Shown piece after piece: positions 31,569 through 64,000 of a stretch of 64,000 nucleotides of DNA; position 1 is the first letter of the stretch, and each line of letters starts with the position of its first letter. Below the pieces are notes generated by a model. It worked only from the letters and a program-made list of their open reading frames with translations. It ran no database searches and was not told the DNA's origin. The position numbers were made by a program, and so were the translations under genes. This DNA comes from Candidatus Sulfotelmatobacter sp. (GTDB lineage Bacteria > Acidobacteriota > Terriglobia > Terriglobales > Acidobacteriaceae), in NCBI GenBank assembly GCA_036522075.1, contig DATDGM010000140.1:4004-68003 (forward strand), given 5' to 3'.

Positions 31569-33668
<2,100 letters not shown>

Positions 33669-45902: not shown

Positions 45903-45932
45903 TCTAGAAACTTTCCCGCCGCCTTTCAGCGG

Positions 45933-48028: not shown

Positions 48029-48121
48029 ACTTAAGATTACGTTACCGGTCGATGCTTAGTTTCGTCAGTCGCGCTCCCGTCCCTTCGACTCCCCACCAAT
48101 CGAGATGCCGGCGCTAGGAAT

Positions 48122-49285: not shown

Positions 49286-49325
49286 AGTTACCTCTTAATC
49301 TCATCGCACCGACACCGCGCTACCC

Positions 49326-50477
49326 TTAGCCGATGTGGCGCAGCCCCTCCACTATGTTCTTGCGCGACGCGTTATAGGCCGGCAAGTAGCCGCTGACCAA
49401 TCCCAGGATCAACGCCACCGACAAGGACAACGCTGCGGTAGTCCATCTCACTTTCATATCGAGCGGAATGCCCAGCCCAATGAAGCGGTGGGTCAATCCC
49501 GTGATCACGGGAATCGCGACCAGAACTCCAAGCAGTCCGCCGGCGACGGCCAAAGCCACAGACTCGCTCACGAAGATCGAGAGCACGCCCTGACGAGTAA
49601 ATCCCAGCGTCTTCAGCAACGCCACTTCGCGCGTCCGGCTGCGCACCGACATCGCCATGGTATTGGCCGAAACCAGCATGATGGTAAAAACCACTGCACC
49701 GCAAATGCTCAGAATGAAGGCCTTCACATTTCCCAGTGAAGCAACAAAGCCGAGTTGAAATGCCCTCTCGCTTTCGGTTTTTGTCTGCAGCGGAGAATTG
49801 CGGAACATGTCGTCGATTTCCCGAGACGCTCGCGACACATTTTCAGCGGAGTCGATCTGCGCCGAGTACCAGCCCGCCTGCCCCTTGAACCACGGCACCG
49901 CCTCTTCCAGATACTTGGTGTTGAAATACAGCGCGTTCTGTGGAGGATCGCGGTGGTAGATGGCGCGAATCGTCAGATCGAGATCCACGGGAAAAATGTT
50001 GGCCTGCAGCGTGACCCGGTCGCCGATCTTCCAGCCGTACTTGTTCGCCAGCGTGACGTCGACCAAAGCGCCGGCGCGGTCGCGCTGCCAAGCCTTCAAC
50101 TGATCGGGCGGAACGATCTTGTCGGACGCCACTTTCAGGTATTCGTCCGGATCGGTTGCGATCTGTGCGAAGAAGTGTGATGGCCGGTCGTCAATATAAC
50201 GGCCTCCGAACCAGGTGAGCGGCGCTACCGCGGTCACTCCCTGCACGCTGCGAATCTTGTCGCGGTAATACGCGGGCAGAAAAAAAGCGAGCGAGACCCG
50301 GTCGCGGATAATCAAGCGCCGCGACGCCTCGGGCGACGCCTGATCCACATAGAACGAGCGCCAGATGCAGATCATCAGCGTGAGCAACAACAGCGAGAAG
50401 CTGATGCTGATCAAAGTCAGCATGCTGCGCCGCTTATTGCGGAAGGCGTTGCGCACGATGAAACCGCTCAGGGTCAT
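49326..50477 (-). CDS. ABC transporter permease, FtsX/MacB-type
   Basis: 383-aa ORF, clearly paralogous to 50485..51633. Shared blocks include FRNKRRS.LT..S..FSLLLLTLM, VKAFILSIC and REVA.LKTLGFTRQ. Confidence 0.9.
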   Translation of the reverse strand: MTLSGFIVRNAFRNKRRSMLTLISISFSLLLLTLMICIWRSFYVDQASPEASRRLIIRDRVSLAFFLPAYYRDKIRSVQGVTAVAPLTWFGGRYIDDRPSHFFAQIATDPDEYLKVASDKIVPPDQLKAWQRDRAGALVDVTLANKYGWKIGDRVTLQANIFPVDLDLTIRAIYHRDPPQNALYFNTKYLEEAVPWFKGQAGWYSAQIDSAENVSRASREIDDMFRNSPLQTKTESERAFQLGFVASLGNVKAFILSICGAVVFTIMLVSANTMAMSVRSRTREVALLKTLGFTRQGVLSIFVSESVALAVAGGLLGVLVAIPVITGLTHRFIGLGIPLDMKVRWTTAALSLSVALILGLVSGYLPAYNASRKNIVEGLRHIG

Positions 50478-50484
50478 GAACTCT

Positions 50485-51633
50485 TCATCCGATGTGGCGT
50501 AAGCCGTCTACGATGTTCACTTGCGAGGCGTGATAGGAGGGGATGGCCGCGCTGAGCAGTCCCACCACGCCAGCCAGAGCCAAGGCTACAGCCCACATGC
50601 TTATAGTCACCCTCAAGTCGTAGAAGCTGACCATTTGCGGCGAATGGGTTGCGGCATTCACCAGCAGGTAGGCCAAGCCAACCCCGATTACCCCACCGAC
50701 GAGAGCCAAGGCCACCGCCTCACTCACAAATAACCCCAGAATGCTTTGCCTGGTAAAGCCTAATGTCTTGAGCACTGCCACTTCGCGCGTCCGTTCGCGG
50801 ATCGACATGGCCATGGTATTCGCCGAAACCAGCAATGTGGCAAACAGCACCGCCGAGCAGATGCTCAAAATAAACGCTTTCACGTTTCCCAGCATGGCTA
50901 CGAACTCCAGGCCGAACGCTTTCTCGCTCTCCGCCTTCGTGGGTTGAGGAGAGTTGCGGAACATGTCGTCGATGGCAGCCGTAACTTTGCTCACATCCGC
51001 GGGTGTGGCCGCGAGAACGGTAAACGTTCCCGCCTGTCCTTTGAAGAACGAAACCGCTTCTTCCACATATTTCGTATTGAAGTAGACGGACTTGTTGTCT
51101 GGATTGGCATGGAAAATGCCCCGAACGTAAAGCTCCAGATCGACGGGATAAATATTTCCCTTGAGAACAATCCGGTCGCCCAACTTCCAGCCATATTTCT
51201 TGGCCAGAGTGTCGTCGACGATTACTCCTTGGCGATCCCGCTGCCACGCCTTCACTTGGTCTTCCGGCATTTCGAAGTCCCGGTAAACCTTGAAGAACTC
51301 ATCGGGGTCGGTACCGAACTGGGCGAAAAAATTCTCCGGCTTGTCGTCTTTGTAAATCCCGCCGAACCAGGAGACGGGCACAACCGCCACGACTCCCGGG
51401 ATGGCACGAATCTTGTCGCGGTAGAATCCCGGCAGACTAAAGGTAAGGGAAACACGATGCCGGACCACAATCCTTTGCGACGACTCGGCACTGCCCTGGT
51501 TCAAATAGAAGGCGCGCCAGATCGTCATCATCAGCGTGAGCAACAGCAGGGAGAATGCCAGGCTCAGCACAGTCAGAATGCTGCGGCGTTTGTTGCGGAA
51601 GGCGTTTTTGGTGACGAACCGGGTCAACGTCAT
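50485..51633 (-). CDS. ABC transporter permease, FtsX/MacB-type
   Basis: 382-aa ORF, first gene of the minus-strand operon. It has the same architecture as the two downstream permeases. Confidence 0.9.
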   Translation of the reverse strand: MTLTRFVTKNAFRNKRRSILTVLSLAFSLLLLTLMMTIWRAFYLNQGSAESSQRIVVRHRVSLTFSLPGFYRDKIRAIPGVVAVVPVSWFGGIYKDDKPENFFAQFGTDPDEFFKVYRDFEMPEDQVKAWQRDRQGVIVDDTLAKKYGWKLGDRIVLKGNIYPVDLELYVRGIFHANPDNKSVYFNTKYVEEAVSFFKGQAGTFTVLAATPADVSKVTAAIDDMFRNSPQPTKAESEKAFGLEFVAMLGNVKAFILSICSAVLFATLLVSANTMAMSIRERTREVAVLKTLGFTRQSILGLFVSEAVALALVGGVIGVGLAYLLVNAATHSPQMVSFYDLRVTISMWAVALALAGVVGLLSAAIPSYHASQVNIVDGLRHIG

Positions 51634-52148: not shown

Positions 52149-53471
52149 GTGGATCTCCTGACGGCGTATCCGCCGACCACCGCCGTTCCCGCCAAGGCCG
52201 GTGGGCCTGTGGCCGAGGAACGGCTACGTGTGCTGCAGCGCCTGGGTGTGCTCTGCGGCGTAGCTGCAGGCGCGTGGCTGGGGGCAGCCGAAGTTCCCGC
52301 CAAGCTGGTCTCTTCTGGGCTATCCCCTGTCCTGGTTTCCCTGGTCATGGTGCTGGGCGTCTTTCTCGGCCGGTGGACCCTGCCGGCCATAGTTCGCGGC
52401 ACTTCTCAGACGCGAGCCGACTTTCTGCAGGCGCCGCACTTGGTCATCTGGGCGATTCTCGCTGGTTGTTTGTGGGCCGTCGCCAATACGCTCACCATCT
52501 TTGCCATCCGCGATCTCGGCCTCAGCATTGCCTTTCCTTTATGGAATACCAACGCGATTATCGGGATCGCCTGGGGAGTGCTTTTCTTTGGCGAACTAAA
52601 GAATGCGGGATGGGCGCGCTGGAGCGCAGTGAGCGGCGGCGCTGTTCTCATGTTTTGCGGCGGAGTCATCTTGGCGCGAGTCTCTGCCAATCAGATCTCA
52701 TCCCGCATGGTCATTCAGGGTGTCGCCGCCGCACTTGGCGCCGGAGTGCTGTGGGGCACGATGTATATCCCGTATCGCAAGGCATATCTTTCGGGCATGA
52801 ACCCGCTGTCGTTCGTGTCATTCTTCACGATAGGAGAGCTCGGCATGATGGCGGTGCTGTCCGCCCACTACATTGGCGGCGCGATGGCGCTCTGGCAGCA
52901 ATTGAGAGACGCCCGGCACCTCCTGTTTTGGCTGCTCGGCGCAGGTTTCGTGTGGGTGATTGGCGATATCTTTCAGCAGTACGCGGTGAAATACATCGGC
53001 GTAAGCCGCGGCATCCCGCTCTCCAATTCGAACCAGCTCTGGGGGTTGCTGTGGGGCGCGCTGGCTTTTGGAGAACTGAGGGCATGGAGCCATTCCGGAG
53101 TGGCCAGCGCGATTTACGGATCTATCCTGATGGCAGGCGGATTGGCCGCGATCTCGTTCTCCGTGGCGGGCCGCTCGGAACATGAGCAGTGGCGGCAAGC
53201 GGCCGAGCGTGAGGGGAAACGCTACCGCCTTGATGCCCAGTTTGTCAGCTCTGCGCTGGAAGGAAAAGGGGCCGCGCCCACCCAGGCAAGAACCTGGTTC
53301 GACTGGCTTTTGGTTGCTGTGGCCACTGCGGCATTTGTCGCAACCGGAGTCGTTGCCCGTTGGCCTTCTCAGGATCTGAATTGGCAGACCGCCGCTGCTC
53401 TGTCTGGAATCAGCCTGCTGTTATTTGCCATCACGGCGGCTTGGTTGTGGAAAGCAACCAGGTTCAATTAG
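52149..53471 (+). CDS. DMT-superfamily (GRP/EamA-like) multi-pass membrane transporter with C-terminal extension
   Basis: 440-aa ORF with a GTG start (position uncertain). It has about 10-12 TM helices. Two related half-motifs are present: WNTNAIIGIAWGVLFFGELK and SNSNQLWGLLWGALAFGELR. Confidence 0.6.
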   Translation: MDLLTAYPPTTAVPAKAGGPVAEERLRVLQRLGVLCGVAAGAWLGAAEVPAKLVSSGLSPVLVSLVMVLGVFLGRWTLPAIVRGTSQTRADFLQAPHLVIWAILAGCLWAVANTLTIFAIRDLGLSIAFPLWNTNAIIGIAWGVLFFGELKNAGWARWSAVSGGAVLMFCGGVILARVSANQISSRMVIQGVAAALGAGVLWGTMYIPYRKAYLSGMNPLSFVSFFTIGELGMMAVLSAHYIGGAMALWQQLRDARHLLFWLLGAGFVWVIGDIFQQYAVKYIGVSRGIPLSNSNQLWGLLWGALAFGELRAWSHSGVASAIYGSILMAGGLAAISFSVAGRSEHEQWRQAAEREGKRYRLDAQFVSSALEGKGAAPTQARTWFDWLLVAVATAAFVATGVVARWPSQDLNWQTAAALSGISLLLFAITAAWLWKATRFN

Positions 53472-53559
53472 TTAGGGAGTCGGCGAGCTCCATGCTCCGT
53501 GCGCGGGTTGGTTTCGCATCACGGCTGAGAATTCTGTCGCTCAGGAGTGCCGGCCGTCG

Positions 53560-53609
53560 GGAAATTCCGGTAGTGGTTCAGTTTGAGCCTGAACCACTAG
53601 CGAAATTCC
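53560..53609. repeat. Hairpin copy of the GGAAAT.CCGGTAGTGGTTCAG repeat family (possible terminator)
   Basis: GGAAATTCCGGTAGTGGTTCAG, then loop TTTGAGC, then CTGAACCACTAGCGAAATTCC. The inner 11 bp pair perfectly. It lies ~90 nt downstream of the transporter stop and has no clear T-tract. Confidence 0.6.
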
Positions 53610-53830
53610 TTTGCGTTTGCGCGGGCCACTCTCGAAGGAGTAGAATCACGCGCAATCCAGCCCCTGTATGGGATTAAAGCGTCCAGCGTGTCGTGCGCAT
53701 TCTTGCAGTATCCGATCCGGAAAAAGAGGTATGATGTTTTGCGAAACTTGTGCGCCGAAATATCCGGCGTAGTGTTCTCACTGGAGCGTTACCTCAAGTC
53801 GTGCGCGGTTTGCGACCTTGGAGTCTGAAA

Positions 53831-55951
53831 ATGAACGAAAATGTGGGACGTTTTGTGCGTCTCGGGGTGGGCCTCTTGAGCTTGGTGGTTTTGGGATGTG
53901 TGCTCACGGGATTTGCAGCCAAGCCCGCTCAACACGGCATCCCGCTGCCCACCGATTGGAGTCACAGCCATCTCATCTTCTCGCGGCCGGCTTCGGTCGA
54001 GCAGGCCATGCGCTTGCAAAAGGATCCGCGCTTCGAGCAGCAACTCTATCGCCGCGCCCAGGCGTTGAGGCTTCCTTTCGCCGGGACGGACGGTGGTGAC
54101 CTAATTTCTTCCCAACTACGGCTCCCGCTCCGCCGCGGTGGCTTGAAGGGGCTTTGGGAAGAGAGTCTGGGTGCCGGCGCAACCGTTGGAGCGGTTAACT
54201 TCCCGGCCAAATTCTCGTTCAACAGCAGCGTGGCCAACTGCGGCGGTGCGACGACTCCAGATTTCGTTGTCTACAGCACCGGCTTGGCTGGTTCCGGAAC
54301 CCAAGCCAGCATCATTGCCTACGACAACCTCTATGTTGGGTGCACCGGGATTGTGCCCTCCACCTATTGGGCATACAATACCGGCGGCCAGATCTTGACT
54401 TCGCCAGACTTCTCCTTAGATGGTACGCAGGTGATGTTCGTCCAGGCCACTGGCGGCATCGGAAGCTTTGTGTTGTTGAAGTGGAAGGCCTCCGCGACTG
54501 AAACCGTAGGCGCCCCTGGCGTTCCGACGAGTGTCTCTAACGCTTCGTATTCAGGGTGCGCAGCCCCATGCATGACGTCGATCCAACTCCAGGACACCAG
54601 CCACGTTCCAACCAACGACGTAACTTCTTCCGTGTACTATGACTTTTCTGGCGACACCGCATGGGTGGGCGATAGCCGCAACTGGCTCCACCGTTTCAAC
54701 CCGGTTATTAAGGGGACTCCGGCAGAGGTAGTATCCTCCTGGCCCGTGCAACTGAACCCAGGCAATGCCACGGCTCTAGCCAGCCCAGTTTATGATCAGG
54801 TTTCGGGGAACGTTTTCGTCGGTGACGCGGGCGGGTTTTTCTATCGCGTAAGCGCGTCTACCGGCGCCGTGACTGCGTCCAGCCAAATTGGTCACGGCAC
54901 GGGTGCCGGCGCGGGCATCGTGGCGGGTCCGATCGTCGATTCCACAGCCGAAGTGGCTTACGTGTTTGCGTCGAATGACGGCGTTGCGCCCTCCGCCGCC
55001 GTATACCGGTTCGCTTCAGGTTTCGCTACGGGAACCGCGGGTGCAAAGGCAATCGTTGGAACGAGTGCGGCCGCTCCCGAGCCGCTTTACGAAGGAGCTC
55101 TCGACAGCGCCTACGAGAACTCAGTCAACGCCGCAGGCAATCTCTATGTCTGCGGACACACGAGCGGCCGTCCCTTCTTATACCAGGTGCAGATCACGTC
55201 CGGCGGCGTCCTAGGGACGGTGACTACCGGTCCGCCCATTGCCACTGCTGGCACAGGGTGCTCTCCTGTCACCGATATCCTCAACCGCAACGCGACGGGA
55301 GGGCGAACCGAATGGATCTTCGCCGGGGTCCAAAACAACGGCAGAGAAACCCCTTGCGGCGGCGGCGGCTGCGTGATGAACTTTAAAGACACCCCCTGGC
55401 AGCCCTTGACTGCATATAGCGTCGGTCAAGAGATTGTCGACAGCAACTTTCATGTCCAAATGGTGATCACGGGGGGAACCTCGGCGGCAGCCGCCCCCAC
55501 TTGGAGCGCGAGCTTGGGCGCCCCACCCTTGGACGAGACCGCAGACGGCGGGGTCACGTGGGTGAACCTGGGCCTTACAGCCGGGACGACGCCCGTGGCC
55601 TGGGTGCCAGGTCATAGGTACGCTGTGGGCAACTTTATCGAAGACACGAACTCTGCGATTGAAGTCGTGACGGCCATATTCGGTGCTAGCCACTCCGGCG
55701 GGGTCCAGCCGACATGGAATACCACCTTCGGACAGACCACTGCTGATAGCCAGGTCACCTGGACCAACGCGGGCCCGGCGACCGGCGCCCTTGCCTCTGC
55801 AGGCGGAAGCAGCGCCATCATTGTCGACAACACCGTTACTAGCGGTGTGTCCGGCTCTCAGATCTATTTCTCAACACAGGCCAATCAGACGTGTGGGGCA
55901 ACGCCAAATGTTGGCTGTGCAGTGCAAGCGTCGCAATCGGCGTTAAAATAA
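53831..55951 (+). CDS. Large secreted protein, beta-propeller-like (PQQ/BamB-type repeats) with two C-terminal Trp-rich ~60-aa repeats
   Basis: I prefer ATG 53831 (GGAG upstream), giving MNENVGRFVRLGVGLLSLVVLGCVLTGFAA as a signal anchor. Motifs such as GNVFVGDAGGFFYRVSASTGAV resemble propeller blades. The tandem C-terminal repeats end in VTWVNLG and VTWTNAG. Confidence 0.75.
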   Translation: MNENVGRFVRLGVGLLSLVVLGCVLTGFAAKPAQHGIPLPTDWSHSHLIFSRPASVEQAMRLQKDPRFEQQLYRRAQALRLPFAGTDGGDLISSQLRLPLRRGGLKGLWEESLGAGATVGAVNFPAKFSFNSSVANCGGATTPDFVVYSTGLAGSGTQASIIAYDNLYVGCTGIVPSTYWAYNTGGQILTSPDFSLDGTQVMFVQATGGIGSFVLLKWKASATETVGAPGVPTSVSNASYSGCAAPCMTSIQLQDTSHVPTNDVTSSVYYDFSGDTAWVGDSRNWLHRFNPVIKGTPAEVVSSWPVQLNPGNATALASPVYDQVSGNVFVGDAGGFFYRVSASTGAVTASSQIGHGTGAGAGIVAGPIVDSTAEVAYVFASNDGVAPSAAVYRFASGFATGTAGAKAIVGTSAAAPEPLYEGALDSAYENSVNAAGNLYVCGHTSGRPFLYQVQITSGGVLGTVTTGPPIATAGTGCSPVTDILNRNATGGRTEWIFAGVQNNGRETPCGGGGCVMNFKDTPWQPLTAYSVGQEIVDSNFHVQMVITGGTSAAAAPTWSASLGAPPLDETADGGVTWVNLGLTAGTTPVAWVPGHRYAVGNFIEDTNSAIEVVTAIFGASHSGGVQPTWNTTFGQTTADSQVTWTNAGPATGALASAGGSSAIIVDNTVTSGVSGSQIYFSTQANQTCGATPNVGCAVQASQSALK

Positions 55952-55965
55952 ATGGGGTAAGCCTA

Positions 55966-56136
55966 ATGTCTATAGATCATCCAACTTCCGAACAGCCGTG
56001 CGCAGCGGCCAACCCAAAAAAGCCATACGAGAAGCCAGCCTTCCGCCACGAACAGGTTTTTGTCACTACCGCCTTGTCCTGCGGCAAAGTCGGGTCGGGG
56101 ACGAGCGCGTGCAGCATACACAGCAGTGCGTCATAA
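55966..56136 (+). CDS. Candidate RiPP precursor peptide (56 aa)
   Basis: MSIDHPTSEQPCAAANPKKPYEKPAFRHEQVFVTTALSCGKVGSGTSACSIHSSAS. It starts 14 nt after the upstream stop and ends 2 nt before the peptidase ATG. It has a leader-like YxxPxF motif and a Gly/Ser/Cys-rich C-terminal core. Confidence 0.65.
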   Translation: MSIDHPTSEQPCAAANPKKPYEKPAFRHEQVFVTTALSCGKVGSGTSACSIHSSAS

Positions 56137-56138
56137 AA

Positions 56139-56681
56139 ATGCCAAGACACACTGCGGCCGAATTGCACGTTCTAAAATGTGAACTGGCGGGTGAGGTTTT
56201 GCGCTCGTCGGGAAGTTTGCGGCTCCGCGTGACCGGATGGAGTATGTTGCCCACGATTTTTCCTGGCGATACGCTGATGATTGAACAAGCTGACAGTGAT
56301 CGCGTCGTCAAGGGCGATATCGTGCTATTCCGCTGGGATCGTCGGCTTTTTGTCCATCGGGTTTGTGGGAAGTGCGGCAGCGCTGGAGATATGCAGATCG
56401 TCACCCGGGGCGACGGTATGTCTCAGCCCGATCCGCCGGTCTCAAGCTCCGACTTGCTAGGCAAAGTTTCTTTCGTAGTCCGAGACGGGCGCTGTGTCGA
56501 GCCCGGCAAGCGTCTCGGCCTTTCCGGAAGCGCAGTAGCGGCTCTGGTCCGCCGTTCCTCGTCAGCCGCCCGGGTAGTTGTGGGAGTTCACAAGATGAGC
56601 CGACGTTCACCGACGCTGGCTTTACAGGAGCTGGGATCAAACGAACTGGTCATCCAGGAGCCTCATCCTTGCCAGAGTTGA
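56139..56681 (+). CDS. S24/S26-family serine peptidase (signal-peptidase/LexA-like)
   Basis: An internal ATG at 56139 of ORF 55998..56681 gives 180 aa. The motif is RVTGWSMLPTIFPGDTLMIEQADSDRVVKGDIVLF (nucleophile Ser in GWSM). Confidence 0.8.
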   Translation: MPRHTAAELHVLKCELAGEVLRSSGSLRLRVTGWSMLPTIFPGDTLMIEQADSDRVVKGDIVLFRWDRRLFVHRVCGKCGSAGDMQIVTRGDGMSQPDPPVSSSDLLGKVSFVVRDGRCVEPGKRLGLSGSAVAALVRRSSSAARVVVGVHKMSRRSPTLALQELGSNELVIQEPHPCQS

Positions 56682-57487
56682 CCACCGCCGTCGATTGCTA
56701 CCACCTCACCATTGAAATTGGAGGCATGCCGGTTCGCGTCAACACCACCGACGCGGCTTTTCTAGGCATGCTGCAGGATCGCTACGCAGGCTTCTTAAGT
56801 TCTTCGCAGTGTGCAGCGGTCGAATTTGACGTGGATTTGACCAGGCAGGGCGTCGGCGACCCGGATGCGGCAGTTCGTGTGAGTCAGCGCTCGGGGGAGT
56901 GGGCCCTCGATCGCGGCGATTTTCGCGCCGAATGGCGGCCGGCGTCGCGCACCGGCAGAATTCGCCAAACTGCCAACCCCTATTCGATCGATGCGGTTCT
57001 CCGCATCCTGCACACCCTCGTCCTGGCGCAAGAGCGGAGCGGGTTTCTGTTGCACGCCGCCAGCGCCATCCGCAACGGCAAGGCGTTTCTGTTTGCCGGA
57101 GTTTCCGGAGCAGGTAAGACCACGATTTCAAGACTTGCCCCTCCTGACACAACTCTTCTTACCGATGAAATCTCCTACGTACGGAAGCAAAATTCCGCCT
57201 ACATCGCTTTCGGCACTCCATTTACAGGGGAACTCGCCAAGCTAGGCGAAAATGTTTCCGCTCAGATTTCGAGGCTATATCTGCTCGCTCAGGGCCCGGA
57301 GAATCGGATCGACCCGGTACCTGCTGGCCAGGCTGCCCGTGAATTGCTCGCCAATGTACTTTTCTTTGCCGAAGACCAGGAATTGGTACAGAAGACATTC
57401 CATGCGGCTTGCGAATTCGTGAGCCGCGTGCCGGTCTCCAGACTGACCTTCGTTCCCGATGCCAGAGTATGGGAGTTGATCGCATGA
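56678..57487 (+). CDS. HprK-related P-loop kinase
   Basis: This frame of ORF 56363..57487. The likely start is TTG 56678, in a TTGA overlap with the peptidase stop. HAASAIRNGKAFLFAGVSGAGKTTISRL carries an HPr-kinase-like Walker A. Start is uncertain. Confidence 0.75.
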   Translation: MTTAVDCYHLTIEIGGMPVRVNTTDAAFLGMLQDRYAGFLSSSQCAAVEFDVDLTRQGVGDPDAAVRVSQRSGEWALDRGDFRAEWRPASRTGRIRQTANPYSIDAVLRILHTLVLAQERSGFLLHAASAIRNGKAFLFAGVSGAGKTTISRLAPPDTTLLTDEISYVRKQNSAYIAFGTPFTGELAKLGENVSAQISRLYLLAQGPENRIDPVPAGQAARELLANVLFFAEDQELVQKTFHAACEFVSRVPVSRLTFVPDARVWELIA

Positions 57488-57843
57488 GCAGACTTTACAT
57501 TGCACGCAATACTCGAGTAGCAGCCCGGAACCTCGACGGCGAGATGATGATCATGTCCGGCAAGGATTCGACTCTTTTTACGCTCAACAAAACCGCTACC
57601 ATTATCTGGCAGGCCGCCGACGGCGCCACTCCCCTTGACGAGATTGTCGAACGCCGGATTTGTCCGGAATACGAAATTGAACCGGCCGCCGCGTTACAAG
57701 ACGCGGAAACCCTGGCACTCGAACTCGCGTCCCACGGCATAGTAGATGTTTCGGAGAAGCCGATCGTTTCCGGAAGTGCGGATGGAAAGCCGCCTGCTGG
57801 GGGGCAGCGATCTGGAGAGCAACGATCTGGAGAGCAACGATGA
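57484..57843 (+). CDS. PqqD-family peptide-binding protein (RiPP recognition element)
   Basis: ATG 57484 is in an ATGA overlap with the kinase stop. ARNLDGEMMIMSGKDSTLFTLNKTATIIWQAADGATPLDEIV...DAETLALELASHGIV fits the PqqD pattern. The C-terminal tail is repetitive (GGQRSGEQRSGEQR). Confidence 0.85.
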   Translation: MSRLYIARNTRVAARNLDGEMMIMSGKDSTLFTLNKTATIIWQAADGATPLDEIVERRICPEYEIEPAAALQDAETLALELASHGIVDVSEKPIVSGSADGKPPAGGQRSGEQRSGEQR

Positions 57844-58964
57844 GCGGCTTGATGGAAGAAGTCACCACCAAGGCTCTCGCCCTCGGCATTCCGATGAGCG
57901 TGCAGCTCGACATTACCTACCGCTGCAACGAGCGATGTGTGCATTGCTATCTCGATCATGACGATCATGGCGAAATGACCACTGCAGAAATCAAGCACTT
58001 GCTCGATGAAATGGCCGATGCGGGCGTTTTCATACTTACCATCAGCGGTGGCGAGATTCTCATGCGCAAGGACTTCTTTGAGATTCTGGAACACGCGCGC
58101 CGCCGCACCTTTTGCATTAAGCTCAAGACCAATGCCGTGCTTATCCGCCAACGCGAGGCGGTCCGCATCCGTGATCTGGGCGTGGAGTCTGTTCAGATCA
58201 GTATTTACTCGCATCGGCCTGAAGTCCATGACGCCATCACCCTGGTTCCAGGCTCGCTCAAGCGCTCTCTCGACGCTATTCGTTTCCTCAAGTCTCAGGG
58301 GCTGAAGGTCAGGATTGCCAATGTCCTGATGATTCAGAACATGCAGGACTACAAGGGCGTGCGTGCGCTCGCCGAAGAACTGGGTGTGGAATTCACCATG
58401 GATCCGACCGTCACCCCCATGATGGATGGCGACCGCTCCGTTCTGAAACTTGGCATTGACACTGCCGCACTACAACGCGTGTTTCGCGATGAAGCGCTGG
58501 TGGGCGACGCGGAGGAATTCTGCGCTGTCAAGGGGCCCCCAGGCGACGATGAACTGCAATCTCTGCCGTGCAGTGCCGGGCATACTGCCGCCTACGTCTC
58601 GCCTTACGGCGACGTCTATCCCTGCGTTCAGTTCCCCCTCAGCTGCGGCAATGTGCGGCAACAGCGCTTCGTGGACATCTGGCGGGATTCCGAACAGCTG
58701 AAAGAAGTCCGCGCAATCCGCTTGAAAGATCTCTCTGGCTGTTCGCAATGCATGCACGGTACAAGTTGCTCACGCTGCCCCGGCCTGGCATACATGGAAG
58801 GCAATATGCGCGGTCCCTCCACGCAGGACTGCGAGAGGTCGTTCGCCAGAACTGGAATCCCCTCCGTCAATCTGCAAGCGAAGATGTTGCAGTCGAAAAA
58901 GCCCTCCGCCGCCAGCCTCGTCCAGATACGCATGCAGCCTGCCGTCGCAACAGTATCGGCGTAG
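57840..58964 (+). CDS. Radical SAM / SPASM-domain peptide maturase
   Basis: 374-aa ORF in an ATGA overlap with the PqqD stop. It has DITYRCNERCVHCY (CxxxCxxC) and ISGGE. The C-terminal Cys-rich block CSAGHT...YPCVQFPLSCGN...CSQCMHGTSCSRCPG is typical of SPASM auxiliary clusters. Confidence 0.9.
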   Translation: MSGLMEEVTTKALALGIPMSVQLDITYRCNERCVHCYLDHDDHGEMTTAEIKHLLDEMADAGVFILTISGGEILMRKDFFEILEHARRRTFCIKLKTNAVLIRQREAVRIRDLGVESVQISIYSHRPEVHDAITLVPGSLKRSLDAIRFLKSQGLKVRIANVLMIQNMQDYKGVRALAEELGVEFTMDPTVTPMMDGDRSVLKLGIDTAALQRVFRDEALVGDAEEFCAVKGPPGDDELQSLPCSAGHTAAYVSPYGDVYPCVQFPLSCGNVRQQRFVDIWRDSEQLKEVRAIRLKDLSGCSQCMHGTSCSRCPGLAYMEGNMRGPSTQDCERSFARTGIPSVNLQAKMLQSKKPSAASLVQIRMQPAVATVSA

Positions 58965-59150
58965 AGAATGCTCGTGTGGAGGCAACCGCCTCGGCTCCCC
59001 CCTGGGCGAAGCCTGGCGGATCGTCCACCGAACCCCGCTCTAGCCCTGCGACGGCGAAAGCGCCATTCGACGAGAAACTCGCATATGGAAGCGATGGTGT
59101 CGCGCACTCATCCCACCCGCTTCAGGTAGACTGCCCCCCGAGGCTCAGCT

Positions 59151-60347
59151 GTGCCCGAGACCGTTCCCGAAATCGCGAGTACGCCAGGCGCGCAATGCGA
59201 CGTGGAGTGGACGCTGCTGCAGGCCGCCTGTTCCGCAAACGCCAGCCTGGAAAGCTCTAGTCAGCAGAAAAACCGCCTCCGTGGCCTGCTTGAGAATCGG
59301 TTAAACTGGGAATCTCTGCCGCAATTGGCCGAACGGCACGGCGTTGGACCCTTGCTCTACAAGGCCGTGTCGTCACTGGGCAGTGACGCGCCAGCCGGCC
59401 CCTCTTTACTGCAACAGCACTACCAAACCAATCTGCACCGCACTCTGTTTCTCGCTCGCGAACTGATCCGCATCCTCGATCACTTCGATTCCCTGGCCAT
59501 CGACGTCTTGCCCTACAAGGGCGTGGCCTTGGCCGAGATGCTCTACGGTGACATTGCGATGCGCCAGGCCGGCGACATCGATCTGCTGATTCGGCCGCAG
59601 GATTTGACCCGCATCAGGCACGCGCTGGCGGAACTGGGATACAAACCCCACGAGCAGTTTTCAGAAGCCGAGGAGCGCGCCTATCTCCGCTCTGGATATG
59701 AATGCGCCTTCGATAGCAACCTGGGACGCAATCTTCTGGAAGTCCAGTGGGCGCTGCAGCCGCGCTTCTATGCCGTCGATTTCGAGATGGAATCTCTGTT
59801 TCGCCGCGCCGTCACGGTCTGCGTCGCGAGTCGAAATATGAAAACACCCTCGCTGGAGGATCTTTTCCTCATCCTCTCTCTGCACGCGGCCAAGCATGTG
59901 TGGGGGCGGTTGATCTGGCTCTGTGACATTTCCCAGATTCAAAAATTGCCGGCACTCAAGTGGGATTGGATCGGCGAGACGGCGCACTCGCTCGGAATTG
60001 CGCGCATTCTGCAGGTCACGCTGCTGTTGACGAAGATAGTGCTGGGGGCGCCAATTCCGGCCCCTGCCGAAAAACTTCTGCGTCCCGATCAGGCAGCTGT
60101 CGCACTGGCGAACGAGATTGCCCCCAAGCTCGGCAACCGCTCGCCGCACGATGTGGAGTCTTTCTCTTACTTTCACCTCATGATGCGCTTGCGGGAACGA
60201 AAAGCAGATCGCGTTCGCTTTCTTAAACGGCTTGCTTTCACACCAGGGCCTGGCGAATGGAAGTCAATTCGTTTACCGGCACCGCTGTTTCCCATGTACC
60301 GCCTGGTTCGGTTGGCGCGCCTGGCCGGCAGGGTGGCTAAGCTGTAA
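59151..60347 (+). CDS. Nucleotidyltransferase-family protein (NTP_transf_5-like)
   Basis: 398-aa ORF with a GTG start. YKGVALAEMLYGDIAMRQAGDIDLLIRPQDLTRIRHALAELGY matches the uncharacterised nucleotidyltransferase family that often sits beside PqqD/HprK-like genes. Confidence 0.75.
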   Translation: MPETVPEIASTPGAQCDVEWTLLQAACSANASLESSSQQKNRLRGLLENRLNWESLPQLAERHGVGPLLYKAVSSLGSDAPAGPSLLQQHYQTNLHRTLFLARELIRILDHFDSLAIDVLPYKGVALAEMLYGDIAMRQAGDIDLLIRPQDLTRIRHALAELGYKPHEQFSEAEERAYLRSGYECAFDSNLGRNLLEVQWALQPRFYAVDFEMESLFRRAVTVCVASRNMKTPSLEDLFLILSLHAAKHVWGRLIWLCDISQIQKLPALKWDWIGETAHSLGIARILQVTLLLTKIVLGAPIPAPAEKLLRPDQAAVALANEIAPKLGNRSPHDVESFSYFHLMMRLRERKADRVRFLKRLAFTPGPGEWKSIRLPAPLFPMYRLVRLARLAGRVAKL

Positions 60348-61533
60348 CCCGCCGAGCGCTCGCGTTCCAATTCATCAAGTACAAAGTGCACATCGCCCCG
60401 CTGGCCAGCAAAGGGACCACCATGCCAACCCGCACGCTGCCTGAGTGTTTGGAGAAGTAGCCAACCAGCTCCGGCAGTAAAGCGCCTCCAAGATTTGCCA
60501 CAGCGAACATGACGGAACCCACCCGCGATGCTGCCTCGCCAAATTCCCGCGATAACAGGGAAATCGTGATGGGATAGACGGCCGCCAGGCCGAAACCAGC
60601 CAGCATAGCGCCTCCCAAAACTCCGAGCACTGCATGGGACAGGAGCAGCCACGTGATTCCCGTGCAAGCCATCAGAAGTCCGGCACGGGCCAGCGCGATC
60701 TCCTCAACCCTCTTGAGCAGCCGGGATGCCAGCCACCTTCCGACCATCAGTGCGGAATAAAAAAAAGACGGACTCATCAAAGCCATGGCGAGCGACAACG
60801 TTCCCAGGCTTTTGGCATACGAGGCGATCCATCCACCAAATGAATTTTCCACTCCCACGTAAAGGAAGAAAAGTGTTGCCAGCAACAAGACAGGGTTGCT
60901 TCTCCAATCGACCGGCGCAGCCATGCTTGCGCCTTTCCCGCCGCTGGCTAACGGTTCGACGATGCGACGAGGCATCGCGGCAATGCCAGCAGTGACCAGG
61001 AACAACACGGCCGCGAAGGCTGCCAATAGCGATGGCACAAGGTGTTCCCGCGCCGCTGCGGCCACTAAAAACGGACATGCTACCGCGCCTGCGCTCCAGG
61101 AAAAATTCAGCAGGTTCAAAGCTGCGCTGCGCCGCAGCGGATGCACCTCGGCGACCAGCAAATTTGCGGCCGGCACTGCAACGCCAAAGCCGAAGCCGTA
61201 AAGCCCAATGCAAGCCGCCCCCAGGACTCGTGCACTGTAAGGCAGCCCCGCGACTCCCACCGCCATTGCCAGCAGGCCGGCTTTCATGGCAAAGCGATAT
61301 CCCCAGCGCGATACGCTAAAGCCAGAGAGCGCCACCCCCACCGTCGACGCCAGGAATTGCACCGTGAAGAGTGAACCCGCCTGCGCATAGTCCAGCGACC
61401 ACCTCGCCGAAAGCGTTGGCAGAAGCGGCCCCAACAGCACCGTTACAGTTCCGATGGGAACAAACGCGGCATGGGCTGCCAGCGTGAGAGGTCGTGAAGA
61501 ATCCGCGCCTTCCGGCGTCTGAGAAGGGTTCAT
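60337..61533 (-). CDS. MFS transporter
   Basis: ORF 60337..61608. The likely start is Met at 61533 (MNPSQTPEG...). It has ~12 TM helices. It is convergent with the nucleotidyltransferase gene and overlaps its 3' end by 11 nt. Confidence 0.85.
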   Translation of the reverse strand: MNPSQTPEGADSSRPLTLAAHAAFVPIGTVTVLLGPLLPTLSARWSLDYAQAGSLFTVQFLASTVGVALSGFSVSRWGYRFAMKAGLLAMAVGVAGLPYSARVLGAACIGLYGFGFGVAVPAANLLVAEVHPLRRSAALNLLNFSWSAGAVACPFLVAAAAREHLVPSLLAAFAAVLFLVTAGIAAMPRRIVEPLASGGKGASMAAPVDWRSNPVLLLATLFFLYVGVENSFGGWIASYAKSLGTLSLAMALMSPSFFYSALMVGRWLASRLLKRVEEIALARAGLLMACTGITWLLLSHAVLGVLGGAMLAGFGLAAVYPITISLLSREFGEAASRVGSVMFAVANLGGALLPELVGYFSKHSGSVRVGMVVPLLASGAMCTLYLMNWNASARRVTA

Positions 61534-61664
61534 TCGTTGGTCTGTCACTCCGAGCGGTGCGATGGAAACCTTGCACGCCCGCGCTACTAGCGCGCCCTGA
61601 AAACGCACCTCTATAACAACAGAGGAGTTTCACCCCGAGCGGTAGCGCACTTAATCAGAGTACT

Positions 61665-62711
61665 CTAGCTGCCAGCCGCTCTCGCGGTAGACTCCCTGAT
61701 CACCAGTTCAGGCTTAATCGCAATTTCTGACGGACAGTCGTCTCTCCCTGCGATTCGTTCCAACAGAGTCTGCGCCGCAACTTGCCCCATGCGTGCGAGA
61801 GGTTGCCGCACAGTGGTAAGAGTCGGAGTGTTGAAGGCCGCGCTCGGAATGTCGTCGAAGCCCATCACCGACACGTCCTCCGGCACACGCCGGCCCAGCT
61901 CCTGCAATGCGCGAATCGCCCCAATCGCGGAAATGTCATTGTACGCAAACAGGGCGGTGAAAGGCTTGTTACGCGCCAAAAGATGCTTCGCAAAAGGATA
62001 ACCCAGCTGCGGCGTCGGATCGTCAATATCAATCTGCACGGTCAATTCCGGGTCAATCGGCACTCCGATTTTCTTCGCGACCTCGCAGATTGCATTCCAG
62101 CGGTCCTTCGAGTCCGAACTGAGTGGATTGCCCCTCATGAAGGCGATTTGCTTGTGTCCCAGGCTGGCCAGGTGAGTCAGCGCCAGGGTAGCAGCTTGTA
62201 CGTGATCCAACACTACATTCGTGACTCCTTTGATTTTCTGGTGCCCAGCAACCGCCACCGTCGGCAGAGAAGGAGCCTCATGCACAGTCGTATCCACCGT
62301 AATGAACCCCTCGACGCCTCTCTGCAGCAAGAGTTGGGAATACTGGCTCAGCAAATTCTCATCATGGCGATGCGCCACGGTCAGGAAGAAATAGTCCATT
62401 TTTCTCAAGTGAGCCTCAATGCCGCTGATCACCATCGATCCGTAAGAGTCGCCGATTTCCTCGGCGATCACTCCGATCGTATAGGTCCGCTTGTTGCGCA
62501 GGGTGCGGGCAAAAAAGTTGGGGCGGTAATTCAGTTCTTTTGCTGCGGCATGAACGCGGTTCTTGGTCTCCTGGGGAATGGAACGCGCAGAAGGCGAATT
62601 ATTAAGAACGGCGGAAACCGTGCCGGGAGTCAGCCCCACATACGCAGCCACGGCTTTAAGCGTAACCGTCGTCGTTTTGGGGCCGAAGCCGGGTCTCTTG
62701 GTTGGGACCAT
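61665..62711 (-). CDS. LacI-family transcriptional regulator
   Basis: 348-aa ORF with an N-terminal HTH ([24 protein letters not shown]) and a periplasmic-binding-protein-like sugar-binding core ([18 protein letters not shown]). Confidence 0.95.
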
Positions 62712-62801
62712 GAGTCCGCTCAGATCTCGGAGTCTAGGTTTCGGCGCATCTTATTTTTTCTCATCTCGAGCAAGGCTCCGACCCCGTCCGCCGCCCCGAT
62801 T

Positions 62802-64000
62802 TTATGCCTTCGCATACCGCTCGCTGTTGGGTTTCGATCCGCTCAACGCGAAATACAGAATATAGAGATAGCAAATGACAGGCAGAAAGAAGGCGTGATG
62901 GATACCGATTCGGTCGGCAATCGCACCCTGCGCCACCGGAATAATCGCTCCGCCCACAATCGCCATAATCATGATGCCTGACCCGTCTCCGGTGAGCGGG
63001 CCCAGTTCAGCCACTCCCAGCGTGAAAATGCTGGGGAACATAATGGAATTAAAGAACCCGACCAGGATGATGCTCCACATAGCGAAGTGTCCGGTCGTCA
63101 GCATGGAGATTGCAACCAACACGCTCGTGGATATGGCGCAGATGCCGAGCAACATTCCAGTATTCGCAATGGCCTTGCCTCCGCGCAGCGCAGCCACTCC
63201 GGCGATCGTCGCCGCTGCGATCGCCACAAGTATAAACAGCGGTCGTCCTGCCACCACCAGCCACGCAAGCCAGGTCAGATTCGGCACCCCCGGCTGATAT
63301 CCCGGGGGCATATGGCTTTCGATTGGGTAGGAGAGCAAAATCAAGGCGATACTTAGGGCGGTTACCAGGGCCATATATTTTGCCTTCGCGCCCCCCAAAA
63401 AATTCGACCCAATAAAGCGTCCCAGCATGGCGCCGCCCCAATAGAAGGCGACGAAACTCGCGGCAACTTTTTCAGTCAGCCCGCCAATGTCCGACTGGCT
63501 GAAGTAGTTGACCAGAAAACTGCCAATCGAAACCTCGGCTCCTACATACACGAAAATGGCGATAGCGCCGAAGATCAAGCTGGGATGCTTCCAGATGGAA
63601 TCATTCACCTTTTCGCCCACTTTGCGCTGAGCGTGTTCGATTTTCGGTAACTTGAAACTACCGATCGCGACGGCCAACACGACCAGAGTAATGCCAAGGC
63701 CTACATAGGGCGTCTTGACGGTCGCGGCCTCGTGCAATCGATAAGCCTGCAGCGCGTTCGGCGCCAGGGCGCGAATCTCGTCGATGGCCTTAGGAGCCGC
63801 ACTCAAAATAAAGACGCCGCCGAAAAAAGGTGCCAGAAAGGTACCAAAGGAATTGAAGGCCTGTGTCAAATTCAGGCGGCTTGATGCAGTCTCAGGTTTC
63901 CCCAGCACCGTGACGTATGGATTAGCCGCCACCTGTAAGACGGTGATGCCTGCTGCAAGAACGATGAGCGCACCCAAGAACAACGGATAGGACGGCACAC
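62802..64000 (-). CDS. FucP/GluP-type sugar:H+ symporter (MFS); 5' end beyond the window
   Basis: The open frame reaches the window edge. LQVAANPYVTVLGKPETASSRLNLTQAFNSFG is the conserved fucose/glucose-galactose permease block, which normally sits ~100 aa into the protein. It lies downstream of the LacI gene on the same strand. Confidence 0.85.
   Translation of the reverse strand, partial: VPSYPLFLGALIVLAAGITVLQVAANPYVTVLGKPETASSRLNLTQAFNSFGTFLAPFFGGVFILSAAPKAIDEIRALAPNALQAYRLHEAATVKTPYVGLGITLVVLAVAIGSFKLPKIEHAQRKVGEKVNDSIWKHPSLIFGAIAIFVYVGAEVSIGSFLVNYFSQSDIGGLTEKVAASFVAFYWGGAMLGRFIGSNFLGGAKAKYMALVTALSIALILLSYPIESHMPPGYQPGVPNLTWLAWLVVAGRPLFILVAIAAATIAGVAALRGGKAIANTGMLLGICAISTSVLVAISMLTTGHFAMWSIILVGFFNSIMFPSIFTLGVAELGPLTGDGSGIMIMAIVGGAIIPVAQGAIADRIGIHHAFFLPVICYLYILYFALSGSKPNSERYAKA

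Follow-up and report, generated by a model that had tools for sequence, protein, structure and literature searches.

Does the 56-codon ORF that precedes a radical-SAM/PqqD gene pair in the genome of Candidatus Sulfotelmatobacter sp. encode a genuine precursor of a modified peptide, and if so, what kind of peptide do its neighbouring genes produce? The window, i.e. the whole stretch of 64,000 nt that was analysed (assembly GCA_036522075.1, contig DATDGM010000140.1, positions 4,004 to 68,003), contains an ATG at 55966 and a TAA at 56134–56136, and translation of this frame gives exactly 56 aa. The same frame is also present as the tail of an 81-aa GTG ORF (55891–56136), however the first 61 bases of this longer ORF overlap the 3′ end of the upstream gene, which ends at 55951. 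Most homologues are 52–57 aa in length and Met1 is at least 90 % conserved; additionally, an independent metagenome gene caller places a 56-aa gene at the same position in a close relative. The ATG is thus the real start.

The ORF is a real, strongly conserved gene. A word search returned 160 homologues, and a profile search of 1.84 billion representatives returned 566 clusters (50 % identity) at E<=1e-3 and 267 at E<=1e-10, nearly all within Acidobacteriota. The top profile hit, P0121 (3397 aa, 39 matched stretches), is a translated tandem repeat and a chance match. A total of 136 species-level genomes carry the gene, and of the 80 loci (of 136) that were compared, all but two are from Acidobacteriota MAGs. 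In a codon alignment of 74 sequences, the invariant amino-acid columns (K18 K19 P20 Y21 E22 K23 P24 F26 R27 V31 F32 T34 A36 C39 G40 K41 C49 S56) have zero entropy at codon positions 1 and 2 but up to 1.9 bits at position 3, with summed entropies of 43.5, 35.6 and 78.8 for positions 1, 2 and 3, respectively. Invariant residues are encoded by every synonymous codon, so the ORF is under purifying selection as a protein. The peptide itself matches no Pfam or NCBIfam family. The gene and its neighbours, all on the forward strand, are as follows.

53831–55951 (+): 706-aa secreted protein with a signal peptide, a low-confidence linker, a predicted beta-propeller, C-terminal small beta repeats and 10 invariant Cys; ends 14 nt before the peptide gene
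55966–56136 (+): precursor peptide gene, 56 aa plus stop
55966–56067 (+): predicted leader, M1–T34; residues 1–17 are variable and residues 18–34 (KKPYEKPAFRHEQVFVT) are conserved
56017–56043 (+): K18–F26 (KKPYEKPAF), putative binding motif for the PqqD recognition protein, of the [Y/W]xxPx[L/V/I/F/A] type
56059–56067 (+): F32-V33-T34, predicted cleavage motif
56068–56133 (+): predicted core, T35–S56 (TALSCGKVGSGTSACSIHSSAS)
56080–56082 (+): Cys39, invariant, within the invariant C-G-K
56110–56112 (+): Cys49, invariant
56131–56133 (+): C-terminal Ser56, the best candidate phospho-acceptor
56139–56681 (+): archaeal-type signal-peptidase-I-like (S24/S26) leader peptidase, an LppS homologue, starting 2 nt after the peptide stop; no transmembrane segment is evident by eye
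56669–57487 (+): HprK-like P-loop protein (Pfam ScmC family), an LppK homologue, with a TTG start that overlaps the peptidase stop
57484–57843 (+): discrete PqqD-type RiPP recognition element, an LppB/lasso B1 homologue, with ATGA overlaps on both sides
57840–58964 (+): radical-SAM/SPASM enzyme
59151–60347 (+): PF14907 nucleotidyltransferase, an LppN/PsmN homologue

The family pattern is KKPYxKPxF...F-[V/E]-T before the predicted cleavage site and x-A-L-[S]-C-G-K-x7-C-x6-S(COOH) after it, or in more detail for the core x-A-L-[S/A/T]-C-G-K-[IV]-x-x-T-Q-x-x-C-x-x-N-x-K-x-S (n=186). Within the leader motif Y and P are 100 % conserved, F 89 % and K 95 % over 186–262 sequences. In the predicted cleavage motif F and T are 100 % conserved, whereas position 33 is V in 53 % and E in 46 %. 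Exactly two Cys are present from Y21 onward in 248 of 262 members (the peptide of the window also has a non-conserved leader Cys, C12), with a loop of 7 residues in 210 of 262 (80 %) and a tail of 7 in 219 of 262 (84 %). Ser is the last residue in 258 of 262 members and in 61 of the 62 loci that have the kinase, whereas Ser38 is present in only 46 of these 62.

The first-pass annotation had read the ORF as a precursor with a lasso-style YxxPxF leader motif, a Thr-Thr pair at the leader–core junction, two Cys as candidate thioether donors, no acidic residue for macrolactam formation, and a Ser-rich S-S-A-S end as a plausible target for the kinase and nucleotidyltransferase. Every element of this reading that could be tested by comparison was upheld: the small ORF is conserved next to homologous radical-SAM/PqqD pairs in 66 of 80 loci, and the YxxPxF motif, the Thr junction, both Cys and the terminal Ser are invariant or nearly so. 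Two details require correction. The S-S-A-S tail belongs only to a subgroup, and it is the terminal Ser alone that the family conserves. Likewise, of the Thr-Thr pair only T34 is invariant, with position 35 being T in 59 %, M in 16 % and S in 15 %. In addition, by alignment with LPP leaders the core would most likely start at T35, one residue earlier than proposed, and the S24/S26-like gene at 56139 was not mentioned.

The enzymes that follow the peptide gene, with the exception of the radical-SAM enzyme, are direct homologues of those of the ‘linear polyphosphorylated peptides’ (LPP) of Bacillota (lppA-K-B-S-D-N of Paenibacillus alginolyticus DSM5050; Popov et al., Nat Commun 2026, PMC13381572). 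The peptidase scores 53.4 bits against TIGR02228, above its cut-off of 51.85, a model that matches 126 of 126 cluster-1 LPP peptidases in the domain table of that paper, and 1e-8 against Pfam S24. It has 32 % identity (E 6e-16) to an LPP cluster-1 peptidase, a homologue from P. contaminans rather than the characterised LppS itself, and S35/H73/D98 are conserved in 50 orthologues with spacing 38/25, against 39/25 for LppS S29/H68/D93. The PqqD protein (Pfam PqqD 3.3e-11) has 28 % identity (E 2e-5) to LppB, with N35 and D73 aligned to LppB N33 and D70, the residues that hold the Pro and Tyr of the leader; both are at least 97 % conserved in the 42 aligned sequences. By sequence, however, it is closer to actinobacterial lasso B1 proteins than to LppB, and its best matches among solved structures are the lasso proteins TfuB1 and TbiB1. 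The nucleotidyltransferase (Pfam NTP_transf_5 8.9e-54) has 24 % identity over 222 aa (E 6e-13) to LppN, covering the metal-binding DxD region, with a conserved GDIDL motif; it is present in 60 of 80 loci and absent from about 6 of the 66 enzyme-bearing loci. A sequence search of solved structures with the transferase gave nothing useful.

The kinase has 28 % identity over 212 aa (E 7e-25) to the characterised kinase LppK, including the Walker A motif, LL[ST]DE and the C-terminal WELI motif. GVSGAGKTT (Walker A) and LLTDEISY are conserved, and PF27840 is found on all homologues, whereas the NCBIfam hits ScmC (4.9e-10) and HprK_rel_A (1.8e-6) are both below cut-off. Its assignment rests on this homology, as the AF2 model (pLDDT 45, from a shallow alignment at 76–85 % identity) was too poor for a fold search and solved structures gave only a weak PEPCK P-loop match. 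The radical-SAM enzyme (Pfam Radical_SAM 1e-22, SPASM 2e-11) has no counterpart in published LPP clusters and reaches the cut-off of no NCBIfam family, the best being AhbD, NirJ2 and MftC. Its CNERCVHC motif (C29xxxC33xxC36) and SPASM Cys are conserved in 61 orthologues, and its best solved relative is the thioether-forming SkfB (1.5e-12).

The leader is of a similar type to that of LPP. In a MAFFT alignment with published LPP precursors, Y21, P24, F32 and T34 are invariant in both families, and T34 aligns with LPP T-1, after which cleavage (F-3 E-2 T-1) has been shown experimentally. About half of the acidobacterial family reads ‘FET’ exactly as in LPP. However, the leader is two residues shorter between YxxP and FET than the LPP consensus YxxPxVLxHQxIxFETxxS, and V-L is replaced by F-R. 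A profile of the peptide family gave only chance matches among solved structures and retrieved no peptide chain at E<=10, although the leader chain co-crystallised in 9x8z may not be long enough to be in that library.

Taken together, the ORF probably encodes the precursor of a ribosomally made, post-translationally modified peptide, matured by the five genes that follow it in an acidobacterial relative of the LPP pathway with a radical-SAM/SPASM enzyme added. Confidence in this reading is reasonable, though not full; the chemistry is inferred throughout. From the conserved RRE residues N35 and D73, the discrete PqqD protein is inferred to bind the leader through Y21 and P24. The bound precursor would be presented to the radical-SAM/SPASM enzyme, which would install one or two crosslinks in the core, most plausibly thioethers from C39 and/or C49. 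This step is inferred only; the two Cys could simply form a disulfide. By homology, the LppK-like kinase would phosphorylate a Ser, possibly several times, with Ser56 the best candidate and Ser38 the second, and the PF14907 transferase would then elaborate the phosphate with a hexose or nucleotide-derived group as in pseudomycoidin. Finally, the Ser/His/Asp protease is inferred to remove the leader, most likely after T34. The product would be a peptide of about 22 residues, crosslinked and carrying a C-terminal phospho-modification.

Published experiments on the homologues show the following: LppK polyphosphorylates a core Ser, LppS cleaves after FET and needs LppB, PsmK phosphorylates the C-terminal Ser, and PsmN is needed for hexose addition onto the phosphate. 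The order propeller protein–peptide–peptidase–kinase–PqqD–radical-SAM–nucleotidyltransferase is colinear in 60–66 of 80 loci from different species, and in the window the stop and start codons of the peptide and enzyme genes overlap or nearly abut. A scan of 53300–60600 for promoters and terminators found no more sites than in shuffled sequence. Several points sit less easily with the model. In LPP the acceptor is core Ser3 rather than a C-terminal Ser, and the equivalent Ser38 is here at +4 and missing in 24 % of members. A second cleavage site is possible, as A36-L37-[S/A/T]38 fits the classical signal-peptidase -3/-1 rule and would leave an N-terminal Cys; a lipoprotein reading of A-L-S-C was rejected because the leader has no hydrophobic signal segment. 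Additionally, about 13 of 80 loci have the peptide and the upstream protein but none of the enzymes nearby; either the enzymes act in trans or the peptide has a role that does not need them. Only one genome appears twice among the loci, and both of its loci lack the enzymes.

Apart from the added radical-SAM enzyme, which the LPP paper and its supplements never mention, the locus differs from LPP in several respects. No ABC exporter lies between 53831 and 60347, whereas LPP clusters contain the MsbA-like LppD. The MacB/FtsX transporter upstream (45933–51633) is conserved only in 5–8 close relatives of 80, and a convergent MFS gene downstream, although syntenic in 56 of 80 loci, lies next to a syntenic LacI gene (54 of 80) and a second MFS transporter gene (53 of 80), possibly a sugar permease. 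LPP was stated to be restricted to Bacillota, and the dataset of the paper contains no Sulfotelmatobacter or Terriglobia entry. The core is short, with Cys spacing fixed in most members and a near-invariant C-terminal Ser, whereas LPP cores are highly variable, the one characterised core being 45 aa and full precursors ranging from 35 to 200 aa; some Bacillota LPP cores nevertheless also contain two Cys. No macrolactam cyclase is found in either case, within the limits of the ORFs scanned here. Protein identities are only 24–32 %.

Other known systems share parts of this arrangement. In the phosphorylated lasso peptides of the paeninodin/pseudomycoidin type (PadeK, PsmK, PsmN), an HprK-like kinase and an NTP transferase act on a peptide ending in Ser, the kinase adding 1–3 phosphates, and the leader is recognised by a discrete PqqD/B1 protein through a [Y/W]xxP motif. 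Here, no cyclase or B2 cysteine peptidase was found among the ORFs scanned, leader removal is assigned to a serine peptidase, and a radical-SAM enzyme is present. The SynChlorMet cassette of NCBIfam/TIGRFAMs likewise contains a ScmC-like P-loop protein, a PqqD homologue and radical-SAM/SPASM proteins as adjacent genes, however all scores are far below the equivalog cut-offs (ScmC 39.2 vs 125, ScmE 103.5 vs 400, ScmF 68.5 vs 400), and there is one radical-SAM enzyme rather than two, accompanied by a signal-peptidase-like protease, a PF14907 transferase and an identified precursor. In sactipeptide and ranthipeptide maturation (SkfB-SkfA, CteB) and in the QhpD-QhpC thioether system of quinohemoprotein amine dehydrogenase (QHNDH), a SPASM-type enzyme also sits next to a small Cys-containing peptide with a leader, yet evidence for a thioether is lacking here, a discrete PqqD is used rather than a fused recognition domain, and the additional kinase and transferase chemistry is unknown in those systems. 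No description of the acidobacterial cluster, and no paper on the SynChlorMet cassette or joining HprK with SPASM, was found in the literature searched.

Noticeably, the most faithful neighbour of the peptide gene is the secreted protein upstream. By tblastn it lies directly upstream in 75 of 80 loci, with a gap of about 12–40 nt, including the roughly 13 loci that lack the enzymes, and it also accompanies distant family members. More than 1743 homologues exist, some carrying PF13570, which is probably a PQQ-like beta-propeller domain, or an inserted Ice_binding domain. No Pfam or PDB sequence hit was obtained for the protein of the window; its AF2 model has a mean pLDDT of 61.8, with a confident propeller at residues 180–470, and Foldseek returned only generic BamB/WD40/TolB propellers.

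This raises the possibility that the modified peptide is not a free natural product but a small crosslinked partner (a subunit, covalent ligand or lid) of the upstream protein, by the logic of QHNDH, in which a small Cys peptide is thioether-crosslinked by a radical-SAM/SPASM enzyme, trimmed of its leader by a dedicated serine protease, exported and assembled with periplasmic subunits. Such a reading would add a destination to the model above rather than exclude it. The upstream protein is exported, and the conserved chromosomal position of the cluster, with its downstream MFS/LacI/MFS genes syntenic in 53–56 of 80 loci, suggests vertical inheritance and a physiological role, unlike the patchy, transfer-driven LPP clusters. 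However, the core loop and tail are hypervariable, which is unusual for a fixed structural subunit, no exporter is present to bring the peptide to a secreted partner, adjacency alone can reflect co-regulation, and the propeller shows no specific similarity to any enzyme. The partner reading is tentative and less likely than not. More speculative still, and unlikely on present evidence, is that the peptide founds a RiPP class merging two chemistries never seen together, radical-SAM crosslinking of a two-Cys core and LPP-type phosphorylation and phospho-glycosylation of a terminal Ser, with the mature product being a dedicated, covalently stapled partner of the propeller protein, akin to the QHNDH gamma subunit, rather than a diffusible antibiotic. 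The pair would then be a conserved extracytoplasmic module of soil Terriglobia.

A precursor of a peptide-derived redox cofactor, in the manner of PQQ or mycofactocin and with a nucleotide-like handle added by the kinase and nucleotidyltransferase, is very unlikely. The PqqD and radical-SAM/SPASM genes overlap by 4 nt as in pqqDE, MftC is among the best NCBIfam hits (137.6 bits, far below its cut-off of 265), and PF13570 occurs in some homologues of the upstream protein. However, cofactor precursors have invariant reactive residues in an invariant context, whereas most core positions here vary freely; there is no Tyr, Glu or Trp in the core of the kind used for known quinone or mycofactocin chemistry, no dehydrogenase genes are linked, and the generic propeller matches do not point to a cofactor-binding enzyme.

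A lasso peptide precursor is essentially refuted, within the limits of the ORFs scanned. The leader motif, the lasso B1-like PqqD protein and the kinase and PF14907 transferase, which also occur in paeninodin-type lasso clusters, would favour it, yet the core of the window has no Asp or Glu for ring closure, the invariant Thr aligns with LPP T-1 rather than marking a Thr at -2, and leader removal is assigned to a serine peptidase. Neither an asparagine-synthetase-like macrolactam cyclase nor a transglutaminase-like B2 peptidase was found among the ORFs scanned against Pfam/NCBIfam, which comprised the cluster itself, 52149–53471 and nine of the twenty ORFs of 250 aa or more in 1–40000, but not 40739–51633 or the region downstream of 60337, where close relatives have ABC/FtsX and MFS/LacI genes. 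A chance ORF or non-coding spacer, suggested only by the short length, below usual cut-offs, and the absence of a family model, is refuted by the 566 sequence clusters, by substitutions confined to synonymous sites in 24 conserved codons, and by the conserved length, start and stop.

LPP peptides, whose final structure and biological role are unknown, were described only in 2026 and were thought to be confined to Bacillota. Homologous recognition, peptidase, kinase and transferase machinery exists in Acidobacteria, one of the most abundant and least cultivated soil phyla, where the precursor is carried by at least 136 species-level genomes and synteny suggests vertical inheritance. It is coupled there to a radical-SAM enzyme and to a short core with geometry fixed in most members, which should be far easier to characterise by mass spectrometry than the long glycine-rich LPP cores. 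The peptide is also a candidate substrate for the ScmC-type P-loop proteins, the cassettes of which appear to have had no known precursor. The pairing with a secreted beta-propeller protein gives a concrete, testable lead to the function of this whole group of phosphorylated peptides.

The sequence at 55966-56136 (+) opens with ATG, ends with TAA and translates to the 56 residues given in the first-pass annotation. A GGGG run lies about 10 nt upstream. In the mechanical ORF list it appears only as the tail of an 81-aa GTG ORF, 55891-56136, the first 61 bases of which overlap the end of the upstream gene, whose stop is at 55951. The short form is the real one: homologues are mostly 52-57 aa, Met1 is at least 90 % conserved, and in a closely related metagenome contig a gene caller independently reports a 56-aa gene at the same position.

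A word-indexed search found 160 homologues, none of which is named and none of which carries a Pfam domain. A profile built from 52 of these, searched against 1.84 billion representatives, found 566 clusters at E<=1e-3 and 267 at E<=1e-10. The top profile hit, a 3397-aa protein (P0121), is made of 39 copies of a repeat containing ‘ERVFLTVxQALSCG’, and is a chance resemblance to residues 29-40 of the peptide in what looks like a translated tandem repeat. A scan of one genome per species found relatives in 136 species-level genomes; of the 80 loci kept, all but two are from Acidobacteriota MAGs (Ca. Sulfotelmatobacter, Acidobacteriaceae, Terriglobia). In a codon alignment of 74 orthologues, the invariant amino-acid columns have zero entropy at codon positions 1 and 2 and up to 1.9 bits at position 3, with summed entropies of 43.5, 35.6 and 78.8, respectively. 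The ORF thus encodes a protein under purifying selection and is not a spacer, and it passes the conservation test that the first-pass annotation had set for it.

The anatomy of the family was derived from 262 members and from 186 members of the main length class. Residues 1-17 are variable and hydrophilic, whereas residues 18-41 are almost fixed (K-K-P-Y-x-K-P-[A/S]-F-R-x-E-x-V-F-[V/E]-T-x-A-L-[S]-C-G-K). A variable 7-residue loop follows in 80 % of members, with a preferred T-Q, then an invariant Cys and a tail of 7 residues (84 %) ending x-x-N-x-K-x-S. Exactly two Cys are present from the motif Tyr (Y21) onward in 248 of 262 members; the window's own peptide has a third, non-conserved Cys at leader position 12. 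F32 and T34 are invariant, while position 35 varies (T 59 %, M 16 %, S 15 %). The last residue is Ser in 258 of 262 members, but Ser38 is Ser in only 76 % (A 13 %, T 6 %). The ‘S-S-A-S’ ending, described in the first-pass annotation as a Ser-rich C-terminus, belongs to a subgroup, and only the terminal Ser is a family feature.

Downstream of the peptide gene on the same strand lie five genes, mostly with nearly abutting or overlapping stops and starts:

56139-56681 (+), S24/S26-type peptidase (Pfam S24, 1e-8; NCBIfam archaeal-type signal peptidase I, TIGR02228, at 53.4 bits, above its cut-off of 51.85)
56669-57487 (+), P-loop protein with weak hits to ScmC and HprK-related kinases
57484-57843 (+), PqqD protein
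57840-58964 (+), radical-SAM/SPASM protein
59151-60347 (+), PF14907 nucleotidyltransferase, after a gap of about 190 nt

Comparison of these proteins with the 80 loci by tblastn shows the same order in 60-66 of them. Catalytic motifs are conserved across orthologues, namely GWSM/HR/GD...D in the peptidase, GVSGAGKTT and LLTDEISY in the kinase, CNERCVHC plus the SPASM Cys in the radical-SAM protein, and GDIDL in the transferase. No lasso cyclase or B2 peptidase was found among the ORFs scanned against Pfam/NCBIfam, which comprised the cluster itself, 52149-53471, and nine of the twenty ORFs of 250 aa or more in 1-40000, but not the ORFs at 40739-51633 or downstream of 60337. Loci that lack the PF14907 transferase (L048, L056, L060 and L076 of the loci compared) have a SET-domain protein (PF00856, 3.4e-20) and a 190-aa protein with no domain hit following the radical-SAM gene, e.g. 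at L056:11855-12334. Residue 38 is mostly not Ser in these loci (G, N, N, T in 4 of 6), and the core has an invariant Lys41. A further locus (L062:8001-9561) is degenerate: the peptide is intact, only a remnant of the peptidase gene remains, and the kinase, PqqD and radical-SAM genes are deleted, with the PF14907 gene directly following, which looks like a recent loss.

The key comparison is with the ‘linear polyphosphorylated peptides’ (LPP), defined in Bacillota in 2026 (PMC13381572). The LPP core genes encode a signal-peptidase-I-like leader peptidase, LppS (catalytic S29/H68/D93), a discrete recognition protein, LppB, an HprK-like kinase, LppK, an uncharacterised NTP transferase, LppN, and an MsbA-like exporter, and the precursor leader consensus is YxxPxVLxHQxIxFETxxS. 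It has been shown experimentally that LppK puts several phosphates on core Ser3, that LppS cleaves after F-3 E-2 T-1 and needs LppB, and that LppB residues N33 and D70 hold the Pro and Tyr of the leader. Sequences printed in the supplements of that paper were compared directly with the proteins of the window.

Pairwise comparison of the window's proteins with LPP proteins (window protein; compared with; identity; E-value)
P-loop kinase; LppK; 28 % over 212 aa; 7e-25
PF14907 transferase; LppN; 24 % over 222 aa; 6e-13
PqqD; LppB; 28 % over 71 aa; 2e-5
Peptidase; LPP cluster-1 peptidase (P. contaminans homologue, not LppS itself); 32 % over 108 aa; 6e-16

In the PqqD comparison, N35 and D73 align with N33 and D70 of LppB. 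The S35/H73/D98 spacing of the peptidase is 38/25, against 39/25 in LppS, and the LPP peptidase set all matches TIGR02228 (126 of 126), the model that the window's peptidase passes. An alignment of the present family with eight LPP precursors leaves Y21, P24, F32 and T34 invariant across both, although this family is two residues shorter between YxxP and FET. Nearly half of the family reads ‘VFET’ exactly.

Several mechanistic steps can be inferred from these homologues. The PqqD protein most likely binds the KKPYxKPxF segment, and the peptidase most likely cuts after T34, giving a 22-residue core, TALSCGKVGSGTSACSIHSSAS, one residue longer than the core proposed in the first-pass annotation. 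An alternative cut after A36-L37-[S/A/T]38 fits the classical -3/-1 signal-peptidase rule and cannot be excluded. The kinase most likely phosphorylates a Ser. In LPP that residue is core Ser3, whereas in the lasso peptides paeninodin and pseudomycoidin the homologous kinases phosphorylate the C-terminal Ser one to three times, and the NTP transferase PsmN is needed to add hexose onto the phosphate. Among 62 loci that keep the kinase, residue 38 is Ser in 46 and something else in 16, while the C-terminal residue is Ser in 61; the terminal Ser is therefore the better acceptor candidate. The radical-SAM/SPASM enzyme reaches no curated family cut-off. Its closest solved relative is SkfB, which makes a Cys-to-Met thioether, with SuiB, CteB and PqqE further off. 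Given two invariant Cys at mostly fixed spacing, a thioether crosslink is the most economical guess, yet a disulfide plus a different radical reaction is equally compatible with the data.

The cluster differs from LPP in several respects. No radical-SAM or SPASM protein, nor PF04055, was found in the text and supplements of the LPP paper, although one supplement was searched only in part. There is no exporter in the conserved cluster. A MacB-type ABC export system at 45933-51633 (-), with three consecutive FtsX-family permease paralogues, a membrane-fusion protein and an ATPase, is annotated from the syntenic genes in close relatives (loci L088 and L089); it is conserved next to the cluster only in the closest relatives (5-8 of 80 loci), and is probably not part of the system. 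At 60337-63998 (-), a convergent MFS transporter, a LacI-family regulator and a second MFS transporter, probably a sugar permease, are syntenic with the cluster in 53-56 of 80 loci, and the first MFS gene overlaps the 3′ end of the transferase gene by 11 nt. This synteny points to vertical inheritance rather than the patchy, transfer-driven pattern reported for LPP. In addition, the PqqD protein is closer in sequence to actinobacterial lasso B1 proteins than to LppB. Elsewhere in the window, a run of same-strand genes at 19470-40728 (+) includes a cytochrome P450 (19470-20936), a second radical-SAM protein with an HMPTM-type zinc ribbon (31569-33668), an MMPL/SecDF-like transporter (35095-37704) and a 1007-aa LolA-like protein; this may be a membrane-lipid pathway, and is unrelated to the present finding. 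Two large Ser/Thr protein kinases are encoded at 12830-15412 (+) and 15455-18763 (-), one fused to many TPR repeats and the other to an OmpR-type DNA-binding domain.

An unexpected genomic partner is encoded just upstream of the peptide gene. The gene at 53831-55951 encodes a 706-aa exported protein with a signal peptide and 10 invariant Cys, and no Pfam or solved-structure sequence match. Its predicted structure contains a confident beta-propeller and C-terminal beta repeats, with only generic BamB/WD40/TolB fold matches. It precedes the peptide gene in 75 of 80 loci, and also precedes distant ‘VFET’ members. In close relatives (L088 and L089, 6001-8700, and about 20 homologues) the protein is 899 aa, with a PF11999 ice-binding-like domain of about 200 aa inserted after residue 175, and is otherwise 64 % identical to the window's protein.

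About 13 loci carry this protein and the peptide (at about 8001 in most) but none of the five enzymes. These loci share their own synteny, with an ECF sigma/anti-sigma pair upstream and an OmpA-like protein and a PAS/sigma-54 regulator downstream, as well as their own, unusually conserved core, ...SCGKTGTQAQCSLNIKVS; their leaders and terminal Ser are intact. Either the enzymes act in trans or the peptide-propeller pair has a role of its own. A documented precedent is quinohemoprotein amine dehydrogenase, in which a small Cys peptide with a leader is crosslinked by a radical-SAM/SPASM enzyme, trimmed by a dedicated protease, exported and joined to periplasmic subunits. The peptide could likewise be a stapled small partner of the propeller, although this reading is tentative and, on present evidence, rather unlikely.

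The first-pass annotation, which had read the ORF as a precursor with a YxxPxF leader motif, a two-Cys core offering candidate thioether donors and a terminal Ser region as a plausible kinase and nucleotidyltransferase target, is supported in all comparatively testable respects, with small corrections to the leader-core boundary and to the ‘Ser-rich’ tail; it missed the peptidase gene and the upstream partner. On the basis of homology and conservation, in the absence of direct evidence for the chemistry or biological role, the system is best described as an LPP-type pathway in Acidobacteriota that has acquired a radical-SAM/SPASM enzyme and acts on a short, two-Cys, Ser-terminated core. The authors of PMC13381572 state that LPP is restricted to Bacillota. 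However, SSN cluster 3 of their own dataset (Supplementary Data 1) holds signal-peptidase-like proteins from Acidobacteriota, Myxococcota, Chloroflexota and candidate phyla, which were not analysed further; some of these are next to ‘other’ recognition proteins, and one is 34 % identical to the window's peptidase. The dataset contains nothing from Sulfotelmatobacter or Terriglobia. The presence of these proteins suggests that related peptide systems are spread well beyond Bacillota.
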